Shown one piece after another: positions 2,653 to 56,842 of a stretch of DNA of 64,000 nt (within the stretch, counting starts at the first letter, position 1; the number at the start of each line of letters is the position of its first letter). Source of the DNA: a phage. The notes beneath the pieces are model-generated. The model ran no database searches. It saw only the letters and a program-made list of their open reading frames with translations, and was not told where the DNA came from. The DNA lies in sequence record PZ452595.1. One strand, 5' to 3'. Made by a program: the position numbers and the translations under genes.

Positions 2653-4277
<1,625 letters not shown>

Positions 4278-5616: not shown

Positions 5617-6426
5617 ATGCTTAAAGAACAACTGATTGCCGAAGCGCAGAAAATTGATGCTTCCGTTGCTCTTGATAGTATTTTCGAATCAGTTAATATT
5701 TCTCCGGAAGCAAAAGAAACTTTCGGCACTGTATTCGAAGCTACCGTCAAGCAGCACGCCGTTAAATTAGCTGAATCTCATATCGCTAAAATTGCTGAAA
5801 AAGCAGAAGAAGAAGTAGAAAAAAATAAAGAAGAAGCCGAAGAAAAAGCTGAGAAGAAAATCGCTGAGCAAGCTTCTAAATTCATTGACCATCTTGCAAA
5901 AGAATGGCTCGCTGAAAATAAATTAGCAGTTGATAAAGGCATCAAAGCCGAACTGTTTGAATCCATGCTTGGTGGATTAAAAGAGCTCTTTGTTGAACAC
6001 AACGTTGTTGTTCCAGAAGAATCAGTTGATGTTGTAGCTGAAATGGAAGAAGAGCTGCAAGAACATAAAGAAGAATCAGCTCGTCTGTTCGAAGAACTCA
6101 ATAAGCGTGACGCATATATCAATTATGTGCAGCGTGAAGTGGCATTGAGCGAAAGTACTAAAGATCTGACTGAGTCTCAAAAAGAAAAAGTCTCTGCTCT
6201 GGTCGAAGGTATGGATTATTCAGATGCATTCTCAAGTAAATTGAGTGCAATCGTAGAAATGGTGAAGAAATCTAATAAAGATGAAAGCACTATTACTGAG
6301 AGTATAAATACTCCTGATACTGAAGCAGCCGGACTGAATTTCGTCACTGAAGCTGTAGAAGATAAAGCTGCACAAGGTGCAGAAGATATTGTAAGTGTAT
6401 ATGCGAAAGTCGCATCTCGTTTCTAA
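5617..6426 (+). CDS. 22: Prohead core scaffold protein gp22
   Basis: 269 aa, E/K-rich coiled-coil-like sequence upstream of gene 23. Confidence 0.9.
   Translation: MLKEQLIAEAQKIDASVALDSIFESVNISPEAKETFGTVFEATVKQHAVKLAESHIAKIAEKAEEEVEKNKEEAEEKAEKKIAEQASKFIDHLAKEWLAENKLAVDKGIKAELFESMLGGLKELFVEHNVVVPEESVDVVAEMEEELQEHKEESARLFEELNKRDAYINYVQREVALSESTKDLTESQKEKVSALVEGMDYSDAFSSKLSAIVEMVKKSNKDESTITESINTPDTEAAGLNFVTEAVEDKAAQGAEDIVSVYAKVASRF
6303..6310 (+). promoter_or_regulatory. T4 late promoter motif TATAAATA inside the 3' part of gene 22 (P23)
   Basis: Exact TATAAATA about 135 nt upstream of the gene 23 ATG. Confidence 0.5.
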
Positions 6427-12861: not shown

Positions 12862-14373
12862 ATGACTGACATTAAAGTACATTTTTATGATTTTAGTCAC
12901 GTGAGAATTGATTGTGAAGAAAGTACATTTCATGAACTCCGTGATTTCTTTAGCTTCGAAGCTGATGGGTATCGTTTTAATCCGAAATACAAATATGGCC
13001 ACTGGGATGGACGAATCCGTCTTTTAGATTATAATCGTCTTCTTCCATTCGGCTTAGTCGGGCAAATTAAAAAGTTCTGTGATAACTTTGGCTATAAAGC
13101 CTGGATTGACCCACAAATTAACGAAAAAGAAGAATTATCAAGAAAAGATTTTGATGAATGGCTTTCTAAATTAGAAATCTATTCAGGAAATAAAAGAATT
13201 GAACCACATTGGTATCAAAAAGATGCAGTGTTCGAAGGATTAGTTAATCGTCGTAGAATTCTTAATCTTCCAACATCCGCCGGTAAATCTTTAATTCAAG
13301 CTTTGCTTGCGCGATATTATTTGGAAAATTATGAAGGTAAAATTCTTATCATTGTTCCAACAACTGCTTTGACAACTCAGATGGCTGATGACTTTGTTGA
13401 CTATCGTTTATTCAGTCATGCAATGATAAAGAAAATTGGTGGCGGAGCATCAAAAGATGATAAATATAAAAATGATGCACCAGTCGTTGTTGGTACATGG
13501 CAAACTGTAGTTAAACAACCAAAAGAATGGTTCTCACAGTTTGGAATGATGATGAATGATGAATGTCATCTTGCTACAGGAAAAAGTATTTCATCTATCA
13601 TATCAGGTTTAAATAACTGCATGTTCAAATTTGGTTTATCTGGTTCATTACGTGATGGCAAAGCCAATATCATGCAGTATGTTGGAATGTTTGGTGAAAT
13701 ATTTAAGCCAGTAACGACTTCTAAATTAATGGAAGATGGACAAGTAACTGAGCTAAAAATTAATAGTATTTTTCTTCGCTATCCAGATGAGTTCACTACT
13801 AAATTAAAGGGAAAAACTTACCAAGAAGAAATAAAAATTATTACTGGGCTCAGTAAAAGAAATAAATGGATCGCTAAATTAGCTATTAAGCTTGCGCAAA
13901 AAGATGAAAACGCTTTTGTCATGTTTAAACATGTATCGCACGGTAAAGCTATTTTCGATTTAATTAAAAATGAATACGATAAAGTTTATTACGTATCAGG
14001 GGAAGTTGATACTGAAACCCGCAATATAATGAAAACCTTAGCTGAAAATGGTAAAGGAATAATTATAGTAGCTAGTTATGGTGTATTTTCTACTGGTATT
14101 TCAGTTAAAAATCTGCACCACGTTGTTTTAGCACACGGTGTTAAATCAAAAATCATTGTATTACAAACAATCGGTCGTGTATTACGTAAGCATGGTTCTA
14201 AGACAATAGCAACAGTCTGGGACCTCATAGATGATTGTGGTGTTAAGCCAAAATCTGCTAATACGAAAAAGAAATATGTTCATTTGAACTATCTTTTAAA
14301 ACACGGCATTGATCGTATTCAGCGCTACGCAGATGAAAAATTTAATTACGTAATGAAAACAGTTAATTTATAA
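12862..14373 (+). CDS. uvsW: UvsW recombination/repair helicase
   Basis: 503 aa with SF2 helicase motifs (Walker A PTSAGKS, DECH box); N-terminus matches T4 UvsW as recalled. Confidence 0.93.
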   Translation: MTDIKVHFYDFSHVRIDCEESTFHELRDFFSFEADGYRFNPKYKYGHWDGRIRLLDYNRLLPFGLVGQIKKFCDNFGYKAWIDPQINEKEELSRKDFDEWLSKLEIYSGNKRIEPHWYQKDAVFEGLVNRRRILNLPTSAGKSLIQALLARYYLENYEGKILIIVPTTALTTQMADDFVDYRLFSHAMIKKIGGGASKDDKYKNDAPVVVGTWQTVVKQPKEWFSQFGMMMNDECHLATGKSISSIISGLNNCMFKFGLSGSLRDGKANIMQYVGMFGEIFKPVTTSKLMEDGQVTELKINSIFLRYPDEFTTKLKGKTYQEEIKIITGLSKRNKWIAKLAIKLAQKDENAFVMFKHVSHGKAIFDLIKNEYDKVYYVSGEVDTETRNIMKTLAENGKGIIIVASYGVFSTGISVKNLHHVVLAHGVKSKIIVLQTIGRVLRKHGSKTIATVWDLIDDCGVKPKSANTKKKYVHLNYLLKHGIDRIQRYADEKFNYVMKTVNL

Positions 14374-14386
14374 GGGCTTCGGCCCT
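14373..14386 (+). other. Short hairpin (GGGC-UUCG-GCCC) overlapping the uvsW stop
   Basis: Short stem with UUCG tetraloop between uvsW and uvsW.1; possible attenuator. Confidence 0.35.
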
Positions 14387-14398
14387 TTGGAGAAAAAG

Positions 14399-14629
14399 AT
14401 GTTACTAGAATTTAAACAATTTCTTTATGAAGCTTCTATTGATGAATTTATGGGTAAAATTGCCTCTTGCCAAACGATAGAAGGTTTAGAAGAACTTGAA
14501 GCTTATTATAAGAAAAGAGTTAAAGAAACTGAATTAAAAGATACTGATGACATCTCAGTCAGAGATGCTTTGGCAGGAAAAAGAGCTGAATTAGAAGATT
14601 CAGACGATGAAGTAGAAGAAAGCTTTTAA
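14399..14629 (+). CDS. uvsW.1: UvsW.1 small acidic protein
   Basis: Track ORF starts at TTG 14387; ATG at 14399 with SD GGAG gives 76 aa. Confidence 0.75.
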   Translation: MLLEFKQFLYEASIDEFMGKIASCQTIEGLEELEAYYKKRVKETELKDTDDISVRDALAGKRAELEDSDDEVEESF

Positions 14630-14684
14630 ATTAAAAAAGGCCCAACCAAAAAGGAAGGGCCAAAACTATAGACTAAAGGTCACA

Positions 14685-14852
14685 CTATAGCAAAAGTTGT
14701 GTTTCATTTAATTGTTCTTCCGAACTTTCTGAAACTGGTAGTTCTTTAATGTAATTATAGCAAGGCCCAGGATGTACAGGACCTTTGTCTGTTTCAACAA
14801 CCAATGCAGAATCGATTGGAGTTTTACAGACAACACAAATCTTATCTGACAT
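14685..14852 (-). CDS. Small CxxC-containing protein (position of T4 uvsY.-2)
   Basis: Hand-translated 55 aa ORF MSDKICVVCKTPIDSALVVETDKGPVHPGPCYNY..., below the track length cut-off. Confidence 0.45.
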   Translation of the reverse strand: MSDKICVVCKTPIDSALVVETDKGPVHPGPCYNYIKELPVSESSEEQLNETQLLL

Positions 14853-14880
14853 GATTGTCTCCTCTGAATTATATATCTAT

Positions 14881-14973
14881 TTATAACCCCATCTTAAAGC
14901 GCATTTCTTGTACACGCTTTAAACATGCTTCCATTTCTGCTAAAAGTCTAAATACTTCTTTATAATTTGTCAT
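14881..14973 (-). CDS. Possible 30 aa micro-ORF
   Basis: Hand-translated MTNYKEVFRLLAEMEACLKRVQEMRFKMGL, packed between neighbouring ORFs; weak support. Confidence 0.25.
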   Translation of the reverse strand: MTNYKEVFRLLAEMEACLKRVQEMRFKMGL

Positions 14974-14975
14974 AT

Positions 14976-15203
14976 TTACCCCATATCTCTCATATGCATA
15001 TCAATGCCCATATCTTTAGAATAAAAATATTCATCAAGATATCCGGCAAATTTTCCTTTAATATAAAGGACATCTTCACCACACGGGTGGTCGGCCAGGA
15101 TACGAATATCCTGACGCTTAAGATTATGCTTTTTCATTAAGAATTGAATCTCAGTTTCAAATTCTTCTTCATAATTAAAAGCATCATCAATGTTATATCT
15201 CAT
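14976..15203 (-). CDS. Hypothetical protein (position of T4 uvsY.-1)
   Basis: 75 aa ORF immediately downstream of uvsY on the - strand. Confidence 0.6.
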   Translation of the reverse strand: MRYNIDDAFNYEEEFETEIQFLMKKHNLKRQDIRILADHPCGEDVLYIKGKFAGYLDEYFYSKDMGIDMHMRDMG

Positions 15204-15616
15204 TATTTTCCAGCCTCAAATGCCCGCATGTCTTGAATATGCTTAATAGCAAATCCTCGTGATTTGATAGCATCAAGAGCTCCGCTACAGAAATCTAATA
15301 AAATTCCCCAATATTGTAATGAAGTATCAACCTTTAAAACATCCTTATCAGCTGATAGAACTGTTTTCATTTCTGATTTCTCGTAACGATCCATACTAAA
15401 TTCATCACCATCTCCTCGTCCCGAGTAGTAGTCTAATTTAGCTTTAAGAGCAACTTTTTTCTGTGCATCAATTCTAAGCATTTCCTTTTTAATACTTGAA
15501 TGCTTATTAAGCCATTTACTATATAACATCACATTATTAGCTGCTTCATACTGTAATTTAGTCGAATCTATAAACACATCTTTCTTCAATTCTTCTTGAA
15601 GATCTTCTAATCTCAT
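15203..15616 (-). CDS. uvsY: UvsY recombination mediator protein
   Basis: 137 aa, same length as T4 UvsY; preceded by a MotA-type promoter. Confidence 0.9.
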   Translation of the reverse strand: MRLEDLQEELKKDVFIDSTKLQYEAANNVMLYSKWLNKHSSIKKEMLRIDAQKKVALKAKLDYYSGRGDGDEFSMDRYEKSEMKTVLSADKDVLKVDTSLQYWGILLDFCSGALDAIKSRGFAIKHIQDMRAFEAGK

Positions 15617-15656
15617 ATTGTTCTCTATTCAATTGTTATTGGATGGACTTAGATTC

Positions 15657-15682
15657 ATTATACCACGTTTTAACGTGAAGCA
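15657..15682 (-). promoter_or_regulatory. MotA-dependent middle promoter PuvsY
   Basis: On the - strand: MotA box TGCTTCA (plus 15676..15682), 13-bp spacer, -10 TATAAT (plus 15657..15662), about 40 nt upstream of the uvsY ATG. Confidence 0.65.
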
Positions 15683-16081
15683 TTATACTCTATTACTAGA
15701 AGCCAGTTGCAGTTTTATCTGCTCAATATCATCAGGGTTATCGATGACCGAAAAGCGTATTTCTACTATCAGAGTATAATCATCATAAACGGGTATTACA
15801 TTAACTGCTAATTTATCAATACGTGGATCATAGTTTCTTACTGCGCTTTCGATGTTACGCTCAACCGTATCAGCAGTAAGAGGAGTCATATTTTCAAAAA
15901 GCTGATCTGATAAATCACATCCAAATTCAGGGTCAAACGGTCTTGAACCTTTTCTTGTTGTAATAATTCCCAAAAGACTGTTTTTAATTGACCTTAATCC
16001 AAGTGATCTGGAAACGTCTTTGTTCCAATCCATTTTCATTTCCGGGTCAATGTCAGAATAAAGCTTATTAATATTTGACAT
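15683..16081 (-). CDS. 25: Baseplate wedge subunit gp25
   Basis: 132 aa, same length as T4 gp25. Confidence 0.9.
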   Translation of the reverse strand: MSNINKLYSDIDPEMKMDWNKDVSRSLGLRSIKNSLLGIITTRKGSRPFDPEFGCDLSDQLFENMTPLTADTVERNIESAVRNYDPRIDKLAVNVIPVYDDYTLIVEIRFSVIDNPDDIEQIKLQLASSNRV

Positions 16082-16707
16082 TATAGTAACTCAAAGAACT
16101 CTTTGAGGCCTCTTATTACGTGAGCATGGGTTTTTCCACACTCTGGACACTTAATTGGAACAGCCAAATAAACAGTAGGCTTTAAAAGCATATCTTTTAT
16201 AGCTACAATATCTGACTCTGTGATGATAGAATATAAATCTTCCAGTTCTTTTTCATTTAAGTCTTCAACTGGAATACTTTCACCGTTAGCATGAATCGTT
16301 TCTATGCATGATACTATCATGTGGGCTATATTTTTATCATCAAAAATTTTAGGGTATCGGAATTTAATTTTAATGTCACCCAGTGTATACCAGAGGTCTT
16401 CTGGTGCATCTATTTGTGTATGTAATAGATTTATATGGGTTGGTATTTCAGTTCCACAGGTGCACTTCCAGGAGTTTTCGTGATTAACTTCTCCAAGAGA
16501 ATGTGCCCATAAATGAATCAACAATAGTTCTGATTCTTGGCGGTTTAAATCTTTTGCATTTGTGCAGTCTTTGATTAGCTTTTTAACAATTACTTCTACG
16601 GAACCATTATTTTTGGCAGTAATAAGTTCTAGATATTCTTTAAGCGTGAATGCGCGACAATTGATTATTTTAGAACCAACTCTCACATCAAAATTGTATT
16701 CATACAT
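16081..16707 (-). CDS. 26: Baseplate hub subunit gp26
   Basis: 208 aa in the T4 gene 26 position. Confidence 0.85.
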
Positions 16708-16729
16708 ATTTTAGCTCCTTTATTTATCA

Positions 16730-16741
16730 TATTTATAAATA
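16730..16741. promoter_or_regulatory. Overlapping divergent late promoters (TATTTATAAATA) for genes 26 and 51
   Basis: TATAAATA on + at 16734..16741 and its reverse complement on - at 16730..16737, in a 51-bp divergent intergenic region with SDs on both sides. Confidence 0.55.
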
Positions 16742-16758
16742 GAATAAAAGGAGCATCT

Positions 16759-17508
16759 ATGGCAAACATTATTCGTTGTAAATTACCAGATGGTGTTCAT
16801 CGTTTTAAACCATTTACGGTAGAAGATTATCGAGATTTTTTGTTAGTTCGAAACGATATAGAACATCGGTCACCACAAGAACAAAAAGAAATAATTACTG
16901 ATTTAATTGATGATTATTTTGGAGACTATCCGAAGACTTGGCAACCATTTATATTTTTGCAGGTATTTGTAGGGTCAATAGGTAAAACTAAAGTACCGGT
17001 CACATTTGTATGTCCAAAATGTAAAAAAGAAAAGACAGTTCCATTTGAAATATATCAAAAAGAATTAAAGGAACCTGTTTTTGATGTAGCTAATGTTAAA
17101 ATTAAATTAAAGTTTCCTTCTGAGTTTTATGAAAATAAAGCAAAGATGATTACTGAAAATATTCATTCTGTTCAAGTAGATGAAATATGGTATGATTGGA
17201 AGGAAATTAGCGAGTCCAGTCAAATAGAACTAGTTGACGCCATCGAGATAGAAACATTAGAAAAAATTCTCGATGCAATGAATCCTATTAATTTAACTCT
17301 ACATATGTCATGCTGTAATAAGTACATTAAAAAATACACTGATATAGTAAACGTGTTTAAGCTATTAGTTAACCCAGATGAGATATTTACTTTTTATCAA
17401 ATTAATCACACACTCGTAAAAAGTAATTATAGCTTAAATTCAATAATGAAAATGATTCCTGCCGAGCGCGGATTCGTATTAAAACTGATTGAGAAGGATA
17501 AACAATAA
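16759..17508 (+). CDS. 51: Baseplate hub assembly catalyst gp51
   Basis: 249 aa in the T4 gene 51 position. Confidence 0.85.
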
Positions 17509-18683
17509 TGAGTATGTTGCAACGCCCCGGATATCCAAATCTCAGCGTTAAATTATTTGATAGCTACGACGCTTGGAGTAATAATAGATTTGTTGAATTA
17601 GCTGCTACTATTACTACATTAACTATGCGGGATTCTCTTTATGGCCGAAATGAAGGAATGCTGCAGTTTTATGATTCTAAAAACATCCATACAAAAATGG
17701 ATGGAAATGAAATAATTCAGATTTCTGTAGCTAATGCAAATGATATTAATAATGTTAAAACACGAATTTATGGATGTAAGCATTTTTCCGTGTCAGTAGA
17801 TTCAAAAGGTGATAACATCATTGCTATTGAATTGGGAACTATTCATTCTATAGAAAATCTTAAATTTGGTAGACCATTTTTCCCTGATGCAGGTGAATCT
17901 ATAAAAGAAATGCTTGGCGTCATTTATCAGGATCGCACATTATTAACTCCAGCAATAAATGCTATAAATGCTTATGTTCCTGATATTCCGTGGACTAGCA
18001 CATTTGAAAACTATTTGTCATATGTAAGAGAAGTTGCTCTAGCTGTAGGAAGCGACAAATTTGTATTTGTGTGGCAAGACATCATGGGAGTTAACATGAT
18101 GGACTATGATATGATGATAAATCAAGAACCATATCCAATGATTGTTGGTGAGCCATCTTTAATAGGTCAATTTGTCCAAGAATTAAAATACCCATTAGCA
18201 TATGATTTTGTTTGGTTGACTAAATCGAATCCTCACAAACGTGACCCAATGAAAAATGCTACTATCTATGCTCATTCATTTTTAGATTCTTCACTGCCAA
18301 TGATTACTACAGGAAAGGGCGAAAACTCTATTGTAGTGTCAAGGTCAGGTGCTTATTCTGAAATGACTTATAGGAATGGATATGAAGAAGCTATTCGTCT
18401 TCAAACTATGGCACAATATGACGGCTATGCTAAATGTTCTACTGTTGGTAATTTTAACTTGACTCCTGGTGTTAAAATTATTTTTAATGATAGTAAAAAC
18501 CAATTTAAAACAGAATTTTACGTTGATGAAGTTATCCATGAATTATCCAATAATAATTCAGTAACTCATCTATATATGTTCACTAATGCAACGAAACTGG
18601 AAACAATAGACCCAGTTAAGGTTAAAAATGAATTTAAATCTGATACTACCACTGAAGAAAGTAGTTCTTCCAATAAGCAATAA
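17508..18683 (+). CDS. 27: Baseplate hub subunit gp27
   Basis: 391 aa, same length as T4 gp27. Confidence 0.9.
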
Positions 18684-19161
18684 AGAAGTTTCTATTCCTA
18701 AAATGGGTCTTAAACATTATAACATTTTAAAAGATGTTAAAGGCCCTGATGAAAATTTAAAACTTCTTATTGATTCTATTTGTCCGAATTTATCACCGGC
18801 AGAAGTTGATTTCGTTTCTATTCATTTATTGGAATTTAATGGAAAGATTAAATCTCGTAAAGAAATAGATGGCTATACTTATGACATTAATGATGTCTAT
18901 GTATGCCAAAGATTAGAATTTCAATACCAAGGAAATACATTTTATTTTAGACCTCCTGGAAAATTTGAACAATTTTTAACGGTGAGCGATATGTTATCTA
19001 AATGCTTGCTTAAGGTCAACGATGAAGTTAAAGAAATTAATTTTCTTGAGATGCCAGCATTCGTTTTAAAATGGGCAAATGATATTTTTACAACTTTAGC
19101 AATTCCTGGCCCTAATGGTCCAATAACTGGAATTGGCAATATTATTGGATTATTTGAATGA
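18628..19161 (+). CDS. 28: Baseplate hub distal subunit gp28
   Basis: 177 aa; overlaps the 3' end of gene 27 in another frame. Confidence 0.8.
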
Positions 19162-20930
19162 AAAAGCCACAAGAAATGCAAACGATGCGTAGAAAAGTTA
19201 TTTCAGATAATAAACCAACACAGGAAGCGGCTAAATCCGCTTCTAACACTTTATCTGGACTTAATGATATATCTACGAAATTGGATGATGCTCAAGCTGC
19301 TTCTGAATTAATAGCTCAAACTGTCGAAGAAAAATCGAATGAAATAATTGGAGCAATTGACAGCGTAGAAAGCGCAGTGAGTGATACTACTGCCGGTTCT
19401 GAGTTAATTGCTGAAACTGTCGAAATTGGCAACAATATTAATAAAGAAATCGGTGAATCACTCGGAAGTAAATTAGATAAATTAACAAGTTTACTAGAGC
19501 AAAAAATTCAGACAGCTGGAATTCAACAGACTGGAACTAGTTTAGCCACGGTTGAAAGCGCTATTCCTGTTAAAGTCGTTGAGGATGATACTGCCGAATC
19601 TGTGGGTCCTTTATTACCGACTCCTGAAGCAGTTAATAATGATCCTGACGCTGATTTTTTCCCTACCCCTCAGCCAGTTGAGCCAAAGCAAGAATCACCA
19701 GAAGAAAAACAGAAAAAAGAAGCATTTAACTTAAAATTATCTCAAGCTTTAGATAAATTAACAAAGACAGTTGATTTTGGATTTAAGAAATCCATTTCAA
19801 TTAGTGATAAAATATCAAGCATGTTATTTAAGTACACCGTCAGTGCTGCTATTGAAGCTGCTAAAATGACTGCAATGATATTGGCTGTTGTTGTTGGAAT
19901 AGACCTGTTGATGGTTCATTTTAAATACTGGTCAGATAAATTTTCAAAAGCCTGGGATTTATATGGTACTAACTTTAATAAATTCTCTACCGAAACCGGA
20001 ACATGGGGTCCTTTATTACAGAGCATCTTTGGTTCTATTGATAAAATTAGACAACTTTGGGAAGAGGGAGATTGGGGTGGATTGACAACAGCTATCGTAG
20101 AAGGACTTGGAAGTGTTCTTTTTAATTTAGGTGAACTTATTCAATTAGGTATGGCTAAATTATCTGCAGCAATTCTTCGAGTCATTCCTGGTATGAAGGA
20201 TACTGCTGATGAAGTAGAAGGAAGAGCATTAGAAAATTTCCAAAATTCTACTGGAGCATCTCTCAATAAAGAAGACCAGGAAAAAGTTGCAAATTATCAA
20301 GATAAACGAATGAATGGAGACCTTGGTCCGATAGCAAAAGGATTAGATAAAATTGCTAATTGGAAAACTCGTGCATCTAATTGGATTCGTGGGGTTGATA
20401 ATAAAGAAGCACTAACTACCGACGAAGAGCGTGCGGCAGAAGAAGAAAAATTAAAGCAACTTTCACCGGAAGAAAGAAAAAATGCTTTAATGAAGGCTAA
20501 TGAAGCTCGTGCTGCGATGATTCGTTTTGAAAAATATGCCGATTCAGCTGATATGAGTAAAGACTCAACGGTTAAATCAGTTGAAGCTGCCTATGAAGAC
20601 CTTAAAAAACGGATGGATGACCCGGATTTAAATAATTCACCGGCAGTTAAAAAAGAACTTGCTGCTAGATTTTCTAAAATTGATGCTACTTATCAAGAGC
20701 TCAAGAAAAATCAGCCTAATGCCAAACCTGAAACTTCTGCTAAATCACCAGAAGCGAAACAAGTCCAGGTGATTGAAAAGAACAAAGCACAACAAGCTCC
20801 TGTTCAACAAGCATCTCCTTCGATCAATAATACTAATAATGTTATTAAGAAAAATACTGTCGTTCATAATATGACACCCGTAACGAGCACGACTGCTCCT
20901 GGTGTATTTGATGCGACTGGAGTTAATTAA
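19158..20930 (+). CDS. 29: Baseplate hub subunit and tail length determinator gp29
   Basis: 590 aa, same length as T4 gp29. Confidence 0.9.
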   Translation: MKKPQEMQTMRRKVISDNKPTQEAAKSASNTLSGLNDISTKLDDAQAASELIAQTVEEKSNEIIGAIDSVESAVSDTTAGSELIAETVEIGNNINKEIGESLGSKLDKLTSLLEQKIQTAGIQQTGTSLATVESAIPVKVVEDDTAESVGPLLPTPEAVNNDPDADFFPTPQPVEPKQESPEEKQKKEAFNLKLSQALDKLTKTVDFGFKKSISISDKISSMLFKYTVSAAIEAAKMTAMILAVVVGIDLLMVHFKYWSDKFSKAWDLYGTNFNKFSTETGTWGPLLQSIFGSIDKIRQLWEEGDWGGLTTAIVEGLGSVLFNLGELIQLGMAKLSAAILRVIPGMKDTADEVEGRALENFQNSTGASLNKEDQEKVANYQDKRMNGDLGPIAKGLDKIANWKTRASNWIRGVDNKEALTTDEERAAEEEKLKQLSPEERKNALMKANEARAAMIRFEKYADSADMSKDSTVKSVEAAYEDLKKRMDDPDLNNSPAVKKELAARFSKIDATYQELKKNQPNAKPETSAKSPEAKQVQVIEKNKAQQAPVQQASPSINNTNNVIKKNTVVHNMTPVTSTTAPGVFDATGVN

Positions 20931-39243: not shown

Positions 39244-40831
<1,588 letters not shown>

Positions 40832-56826: not shown

Positions 56827-56834
56827 TTTTTCTT

Positions 56835-56842
56835 TATAAATA
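56835..56842 (+). promoter_or_regulatory. T4 late promoter motif TATAAATA (P36)
   Basis: Exact TATAAATA about 24 nt upstream of the gene 36 ATG. Confidence 0.6.

Follow-up and report, generated by a model that had tools for sequence, protein, structure and literature searches.

A 12-bp palindrome as the probable core of a two-way late promoter between the divergent baseplate genes 26 and 51 of a T4-like phage

Scarlato, Storlazzi, Gargano and Cascino (1989, Virology 171:475) reportedly mapped, by experiment, overlapping late promoters from which the base plate gene cluster of phage T4 is transcribed divergently. That report, together with Gruidl et al. (1991), makes the two-way arrangement an already known feature of T4. 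A T4 late promoter consists of an 8-bp box that precedes the start by roughly one turn of the helix, with no −35 element and nothing conserved further upstream. The box is numbered −13 to −6, and in other T4-like phages position −13 is often A instead of T (Nolan et al. 2006). The same authors predicted late promoters on both strands of phage RB69, at 118620 (+) and 118672 (−), and we confirmed that these positions correspond to the RB69 26/51 spacer. A further layer of control has been described at the RNA level: a review citing Gruidl et al. (1991, Virology 184:359) states that early and middle transcripts reading through genes 25 and 26 are repressed in translation. A T4 dRNA-seq preprint gives 150 phage start sites (bioRxiv 10.1101/2024.04.04.588121). 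In prokaryotes more widely, a class of bidirectional promoters has been defined in which divergent starts lie 7–25 bp apart, owing to symmetry of the −10 element (Warman et al.). No promoter features are annotated at 26/51 in the T4 and T4T records, and our literature search for papers on the gene 26/51 promoters found nothing relevant.

Here we describe the 26/51 locus in a 64,000-nucleotide stretch of phage DNA (sequence record PZ452595.1), the whole of which is called the window below. The window belongs to a Tequatrovirus, and its 26/51 region is 98.9% identical to that of T4 and 99.5% identical to that of Shigella phage Sf22. We propose, with a probability of roughly 0.88, that a 12-bp palindrome in the spacer is a two-way T4 late promoter of the divergent genes 26 and 51, which polymerase carrying gp55 would open in either orientation. 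We infer the actual start sites, the gp55 dependence, the mutual exclusion and any balancing of expression that go with this proposal. What is new here, on the evidence of aligned sequences, is the comparative invariance of the 12-bp core, an incremental addition to a known T4 feature.

The palindrome and its two late-promoter boxes

Gene 26 (16081–16707, minus strand) encodes a baseplate hub protein/chaperone of 208 aa, and gene 51 (16759–17508, plus strand) encodes a baseplate hub assembly protein of 249 aa that is a paralogue of gp26; both were identified by ORF, T4 annotation and Pfam PF12322. In both proteins the match to PF12322 (T4_baseplate) begins at residue 1, and their alignment to one another is weak (~20% identity, E 9e-6). 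Genes 25 and uvsY are the neighbours on one side, and genes 27 and 28 on the other. Because gp26 and gp51 are ancient head-to-head paralogues, the proposed two-way promoter sits on the axis of the pair. An earlier reading of this DNA, made from its letters only (the sequence-only reading), had treated both products as hub components; this does not hold for gp51, which acts in assembly and is not part of the virion. T4 records also annotate gp26', the product of an internal in-frame start, within the 3' part of gene 26 (corresponding to 16081–16368 of the window, minus strand).

The spacer between the two genes is 51 bp long (16708–16758) and, together with the start codons, reads CAT-ATTTTAGCTCCTTTATTTATCA-TATTTATAAATA-GAATAAAAGGAGCATCT-ATG on the plus strand, with CAT ending at 16707 and ATG beginning at 16759. 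Each gene has its own GGAG Shine-Dalgarno sequence, at 16750–16753 (+) for gene 51 and at 16715–16718 for gene 26, where the plus strand reads CTCC. Thus ORF and sequence reading bear out the 51-bp spacer, the divergent orientation and the separate Shine-Dalgarno site of each gene that had been claimed. At 16730–16741 the spacer holds the perfect 12-bp palindrome TATTTATAAATA, identical on both strands by direct reading and the putative common core of the two-way late promoter. Between T4 and the window, the spacers differ by a single T, in a T-run outside the palindrome. As an exact match, TATTTATAAATA is unique in the 64-kb window; given the base composition, about 0.07 occurrences would be expected by chance in 64 kb, and 4e-5 to 5e-4 in this spacer.

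The palindrome comprises two copies of TATAAATA, the exact late-promoter consensus, each placed at −13 to −6 and neither with a −35 element. The box of P51 occupies 16734–16741 on the plus strand and would drive 51-27-28 and downstream genes, and the box of P26 occupies 16730–16737 on the minus strand and would drive 26-25 and downstream genes. The two overlap at 16734–16737, where positions −13 to −10 of one are −10 to −13 of the other. Since TATA is its own reverse complement, the boxes have their first four bases in common. The consensus permits no overlap longer than these 4 bp, as TA and TATA are its only matching suffix/prefix pairs. The two promoters are therefore packed as tightly as their sequence allows. 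The palindrome, and the 4-bp offset of TATAAATA on the two strands, had already been read correctly.

By the −13 to −6 rule, transcription from P51 is predicted to start at the A at 16747 (+; NC_000866 116467), giving a 12-nt leader (16747–16758), and transcription from P26 at the A at 16724 (−; NC_000866 116444), giving a 17-nt leader that runs from 16724 down to 16708. The predicted starts lie 23 bp apart. The segments from box to start are A/T-rich, with GAATA before the start A on the plus strand and TGATA before the start A on the minus strand, and both promoters stand directly ahead of late baseplate genes. Both predicted leaders carry the ribosome-binding site and begin just before it. 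Genes 26 and 51 had been named as the two targets; the promoters would serve them, but each heads an operon arm (51-27-28 and onward, or 26-25 and onward) and not a single gene.

The window contains 19 copies of TATAAATA, a number that none of 100 dinucleotide shuffles attained (8.6 ± 3 copies per shuffle). One copy, at 6303, is the P23 promoter; the same 8-mer is embedded there in the exact gene 23 oligonucleotide used for gp55 cryo-EM, indicating that the motif search finds genuine late promoters. Apart from the two boxes of the palindrome, the other 17 are preceded by 17 different 4-mers, with no conserved upstream bases. The search of the window identified no further exact TATAAATA box ahead of gene 26 or gene 51; weaker candidate boxes are present on the minus strand within gene 26. 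A near-consensus box, GATAAATA, lies at 16721–16728 (−), 9 bp downstream of the P26 box; it is found in T4 and absent from other genera, and a start from it would land inside the ribosome-binding site of gene 26.

Two one-mismatch relatives of the 12-mer, at 39776–39787 and 56831–56842 (+), both read TCTTTATAAATA. They were rejected as additional two-way promoters, as neither lies between divergent genes: the site at 39776 is antisense within a 386-aa minus-strand ORF, and the site at 56831 is a one-way promoter before a 218-aa plus-strand ORF and after a 371-aa ORF (gp35/gp36-sized). The position of the latter would agree with a published late promoter of gene 36. A scan of 14000–19500 for sigma-70 promoters and terminators gave fewer promoter-like sites than shuffles and none in the spacer. 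The idea that the palindrome is a promoter of the early type was abandoned.

Conservation of the core and rival readings

The comparison covered 26/51 regions of annotated phage genomes (gp51 identity 34–72%) and IMG/VR contigs. From 63 loci we obtained 32 distinct 26/51 spacers, 28 of which contain the exact 12-mer. At least 12 T4-like genera or lineages are represented, including Tequatro-, Mosig-, Karam-, Jiaoda-, Gelderland-, Gapriver-, Winkler-, Teguna-, Lazarus- and Bragavirus. The head-to-head order of 26 and 51, with a spacer of 45–70 bp, occurs in Tequatro-, Mosig-, Karam-, Jiaoda-, Gelderland-, Gapriver-, Winkler- and Tegunavirus, and also in Lazarus- (Acinetobacter), Krisch-, Biquarta- and Bragavirus and in Serratia phage 4S. 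In an alignment anchored on the core, 12 of 12 palindrome columns are invariant, compared with a majority fraction of 0.39–0.50 at the four flanking positions on each side; conservation beyond the core resumes only at the A-rich leader and GGAG. On the gene 51 side, the sixth base past the box, which is the predicted start, is A in 26/28 spacers; on the gene 26 side it is A in 24/28.

The outer four bases on each side of the core are particularly informative. Because the other 17 boxes leave their upstream bases unconstrained, the invariance of these outer bases is explained only by a promoter on the opposite strand: P51 alone would leave 16730–16733 free, and P26 alone would leave 16738–16741 free, so that the invariance of both blocks fits two overlapping boxes. 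Likewise, T is invariant at both −13 positions, each being the partner's −10 A, as two overlapping boxes predict. The earlier proposal of two overlapping gp55-type late promoters for 26 and 51 is therefore well supported, by the double consensus and by the 12 bases invariant in 28/32 spacers.

The exact geometry is not universal, as exceptions in two groups indicate. Krischvirus spacers carry TATTTTATAAATA, in which the minus-strand box is imperfect, and Aeromonas 44RR-like spacers carry a 10-bp palindrome, TATTTAAATA, with one mismatch per strand. The Krischvirus sequence is a 13-mer with one extra T (phage KFS-EC, 828–897, the 26/51 spacer). The same 13-mer TATTTTATAAATA stands upstream of gene 34 of RB49 (300–312), where late promoters are predicted on both strands, and it may represent a genus-specific two-way variant. 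Slopekvirus and Pseudotevenvirus have the tandem order 51, 26, 25 instead of the head-to-head one. In Cronobacter phage Banach and Klebsiella phage Matisse (870–2200), the tandem 51-26-25 directly follows a tail-tube-type gene and a terminator-like hairpin, and no TATAAATA was found in the short gap ahead of gene 51 in these two phages.

Could a single promoter suffice, with the other TATAAATA a by-product of the A/T-rich spacer and the second gene expressed from elsewhere? A/T-rich spacers do raise the odds of chance boxes, and there are the weaker minus-strand candidates inside gene 26. However, the blocks 16730–16733 and 16738–16741 are unconstrained in one-way promoters and invariant in the 28 distinct spacers, A is conserved at both predicted starts, and neither gene is preceded by another exact box, all of which makes this reading highly improbable. 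A very unlikely, if marginally more credible, reading is that a dimeric DNA-binding protein controls the hub genes and has its operator in the palindrome, either in addition to the promoters or in their place, with the A/T-binding DsbA as candidate. Two overlapping consensus boxes account for every invariant base, including the T at −13, which is the −10 A of the partner, and the affinity of DsbA is reported to be micromolar, with no in vitro effect. These points stand against a perfect dyad symmetry that is typical of dimer operators, an invariance stricter than in many late promoters, with their frequent A at −13, and a review reporting DsbA sites that overlap two late promoters.

The remaining alternative, which we regard as the least probable and close to negligible, views the symmetry as a relic of an old inverted duplication that produced the paralogues 26 and 51, the palindrome itself not being under selection. 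The match of both proteins to PF12322 from residue 1 and their weak mutual alignment agree with such a duplication, as does the quasi-palindromic character of the whole spacer (24-nt arms, 71% complementarity), and the tandem pairs of Slopekvirus and Pseudotevenvirus have also been counted in its favour. A neutral remnant would decay like its flanks, however, and here 12 bases are invariant next to near-random neighbours; moreover, with proteins only ~20% identical, the age of the 26/51 duplication far exceeds the time over which symmetry in neutral DNA could last.

Occupancy, direction and the inverted ribosome-binding sites

In the gp55 cryo-EM structure, DNA is unwound from −12 to +2, and the non-template bases at −12, −9 and −8 are flipped into gp55 pockets. 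Applied to the window, these limits give two possible bubbles, at 16735–16748 and 16723–16736, which abut where the two halves of the palindrome join, so that the −12 adenines flipped in each case sit on neighbouring base pairs. According to published footprints, activation lengthens the complex by ~13 bp on its upstream side, where gp45 forms the end and contacts reach about −39.

Based on these data, we propose the following course of events at the two-way promoter. Polymerase with gp55, together with gp33 and the sliding clamp gp45, would open the site in either orientation. In one orientation, transcription would start at about A16747 and proceed rightward into 51-27-28 and beyond; in the other, it would start at about A16724 and proceed leftward into 26-25 and beyond. 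An activated complex extending to about −40 would cover the other promoter with its start site and leader; lying over the partner promoter in this way, it should leave room for one polymerase per DNA molecule at a time. Mutual exclusion of the two polymerases can thus be soundly deduced from the published footprints and the cryo-EM bubble. The direction would be set by the orientation in which polymerase binds plus the orientation of the tracking clamp, as published biochemistry suggests, and clamp orientation would in turn depend on which strand carries the loading nick or primer end.

The sequence-only reading went further and suggested that competition could couple or balance the expression of 26 and 51, which is plausible. 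In five two-way promoters of E. coli, competition was negligible at basal activity and was seen only when one direction was strongly activated (Warman et al.), so that a balancing role is not implied by the overlap alone. The idea is also incomplete, because clamp polarity was left out of it. We speculate that the palindrome might act as an orientation switch, in which each direction needs a gp45 clamp of one polarity, occupancy is exclusive, late transcription is split between the two operon arms by the strand that carries clamp-loading sites, and hence by the direction of replication through the locus, and the ratio between the arms is fixed or less noisy; we hold this to be unlikely. If it were true, the invariance of 12 bases and the maximal overlap in many genera would reflect selection for exclusivity.

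The symmetry extends to the ribosome-binding regions of the two genes, which form an 8-nt perfect inverted repeat, GCTCCTTT and AAAGGAGC. The right arm is AAAGGAGC in the Shine-Dalgarno region of gene 51 (16747–16754, +), and the left arm is AAAGGAGC on the minus strand, in the Shine-Dalgarno region of gene 26 (16714–16721, −), as located by sequence and folding. These 8 nt are 100% complementary, within 24-nt arms that are 71% complementary. When RNA reading through the spacer is folded, the downstream GGAG lies in a stem in either direction (−13.5 and −12.0 kcal/mol, z about −2.3), and for the predicted late leaders the folds show no structure (−0.7 and −1.2 kcal/mol). Each ribosome-binding site is thus paired on the read-through RNA and free on the predicted late transcript. 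In read-through RNA the inverted ribosome-binding sites would pair and hide that of the downstream gene, and transcripts from the internal late promoters, which lack the 5' arm, would be open for translation.

Of 14 loci that were folded, most are predicted to pair in this way, with variable strength. By genus, the hairpin extends from barely past GGAG up to a 13-bp perfect stem that reaches both start codons in Bragavirus; most z-scores are −1 to −3, and those of Bragavirus are about −7 to −8. Part of the hairpin is automatic, because divergent genes carry two inverted GGAG sites. The extended spacer palindrome was accordingly dropped as an independently selected RNA structure, since pairing past GGAG varies and the z-scores are modest. 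The hairpin is a consequence of the symmetry that T4 is reported to exploit, not a separate finding, and this layer is also known, at least for gene 26.

Comparison with known two-way promoters and hairpins

Transcription of the baseplate-hub cluster outward from one common late-promoter site is textbook-level for T4 biology. For a two-way promoter, a phylogenetic footprint could hardly be cleaner than this invariant 12-bp core amid drifting surroundings, and the site would be the gp55 counterpart of the symmetric sigma-70 promoters now under study in bacteria. It could serve as a simple natural test bed for the importance of polymerase competition and for a choice of direction by sliding-clamp polarity.

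The hairpin is reminiscent of those at T4 e, soc, I-TevI, 25 and 26, where the ribosome-binding site is likewise paired on read-through RNA and a late promoter lies in the loop; because of this position, late transcripts lack the 5' arm. The window hairpin differs from the e/soc/I-TevI type in that its 5' arm is antisense to the ribosome-binding site of the opposite gene. One symmetric element could therefore gate both genes; of the two, only gene 26 is reported in the literature covered here.

Other spacers between divergent late genes of T4-like phages show different geometries. In Aeromonas phage Aeh1 (NC_005260, 289–338), gene 4 and the baseplate gene next to it are separated by a spacer with a 14-bp perfect palindrome, TATTTAGCTAAATA, composed of two back-to-back copies of Aeh1's own late box, CTAAATA, and flanked by inverted GGAG sites; late promoters were predicted there on both strands (Nolan et al. 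2006). The Aeh1 boxes abut without overlap, whereas those of the window overlap by 4 bp. The spacer of the other divergent late pair of T4, genes 4 and 53 (2839–2885 of NC_000866 74500–79500), also has TATAAATA on both strands but, unlike 26/51, face to face: the boxes are at 2850–2857 (+) and 2865–2872 (−), their predicted starts at 2863 (+) and 2859 (−) cross, and each box falls within the other's first transcribed bases.

In bacterial bidirectional sigma-70 promoters (Warman et al. 2021; Warman et al. 2026), the −10 element is close to self-complementary and the two binding orientations are mutually exclusive; the window site likewise has reciprocally overlapping −10-type elements on opposite strands, with orientations that would exclude each other. 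It differs in using gp55 and an 8-mer, with predicted starts 23 bp apart where the usual sigma-70 spacing is 18; in its paired key bases, −12A with the partner's −11T, unlike the sigma-70 case; and in activation by an oriented sliding clamp instead of a site-bound activator. Closest of all are the divergent late promoters P26 and P51 of T4, which have the same locus, the same genes and the same sequence (98.9%) as the window, and from which nothing essential differs.
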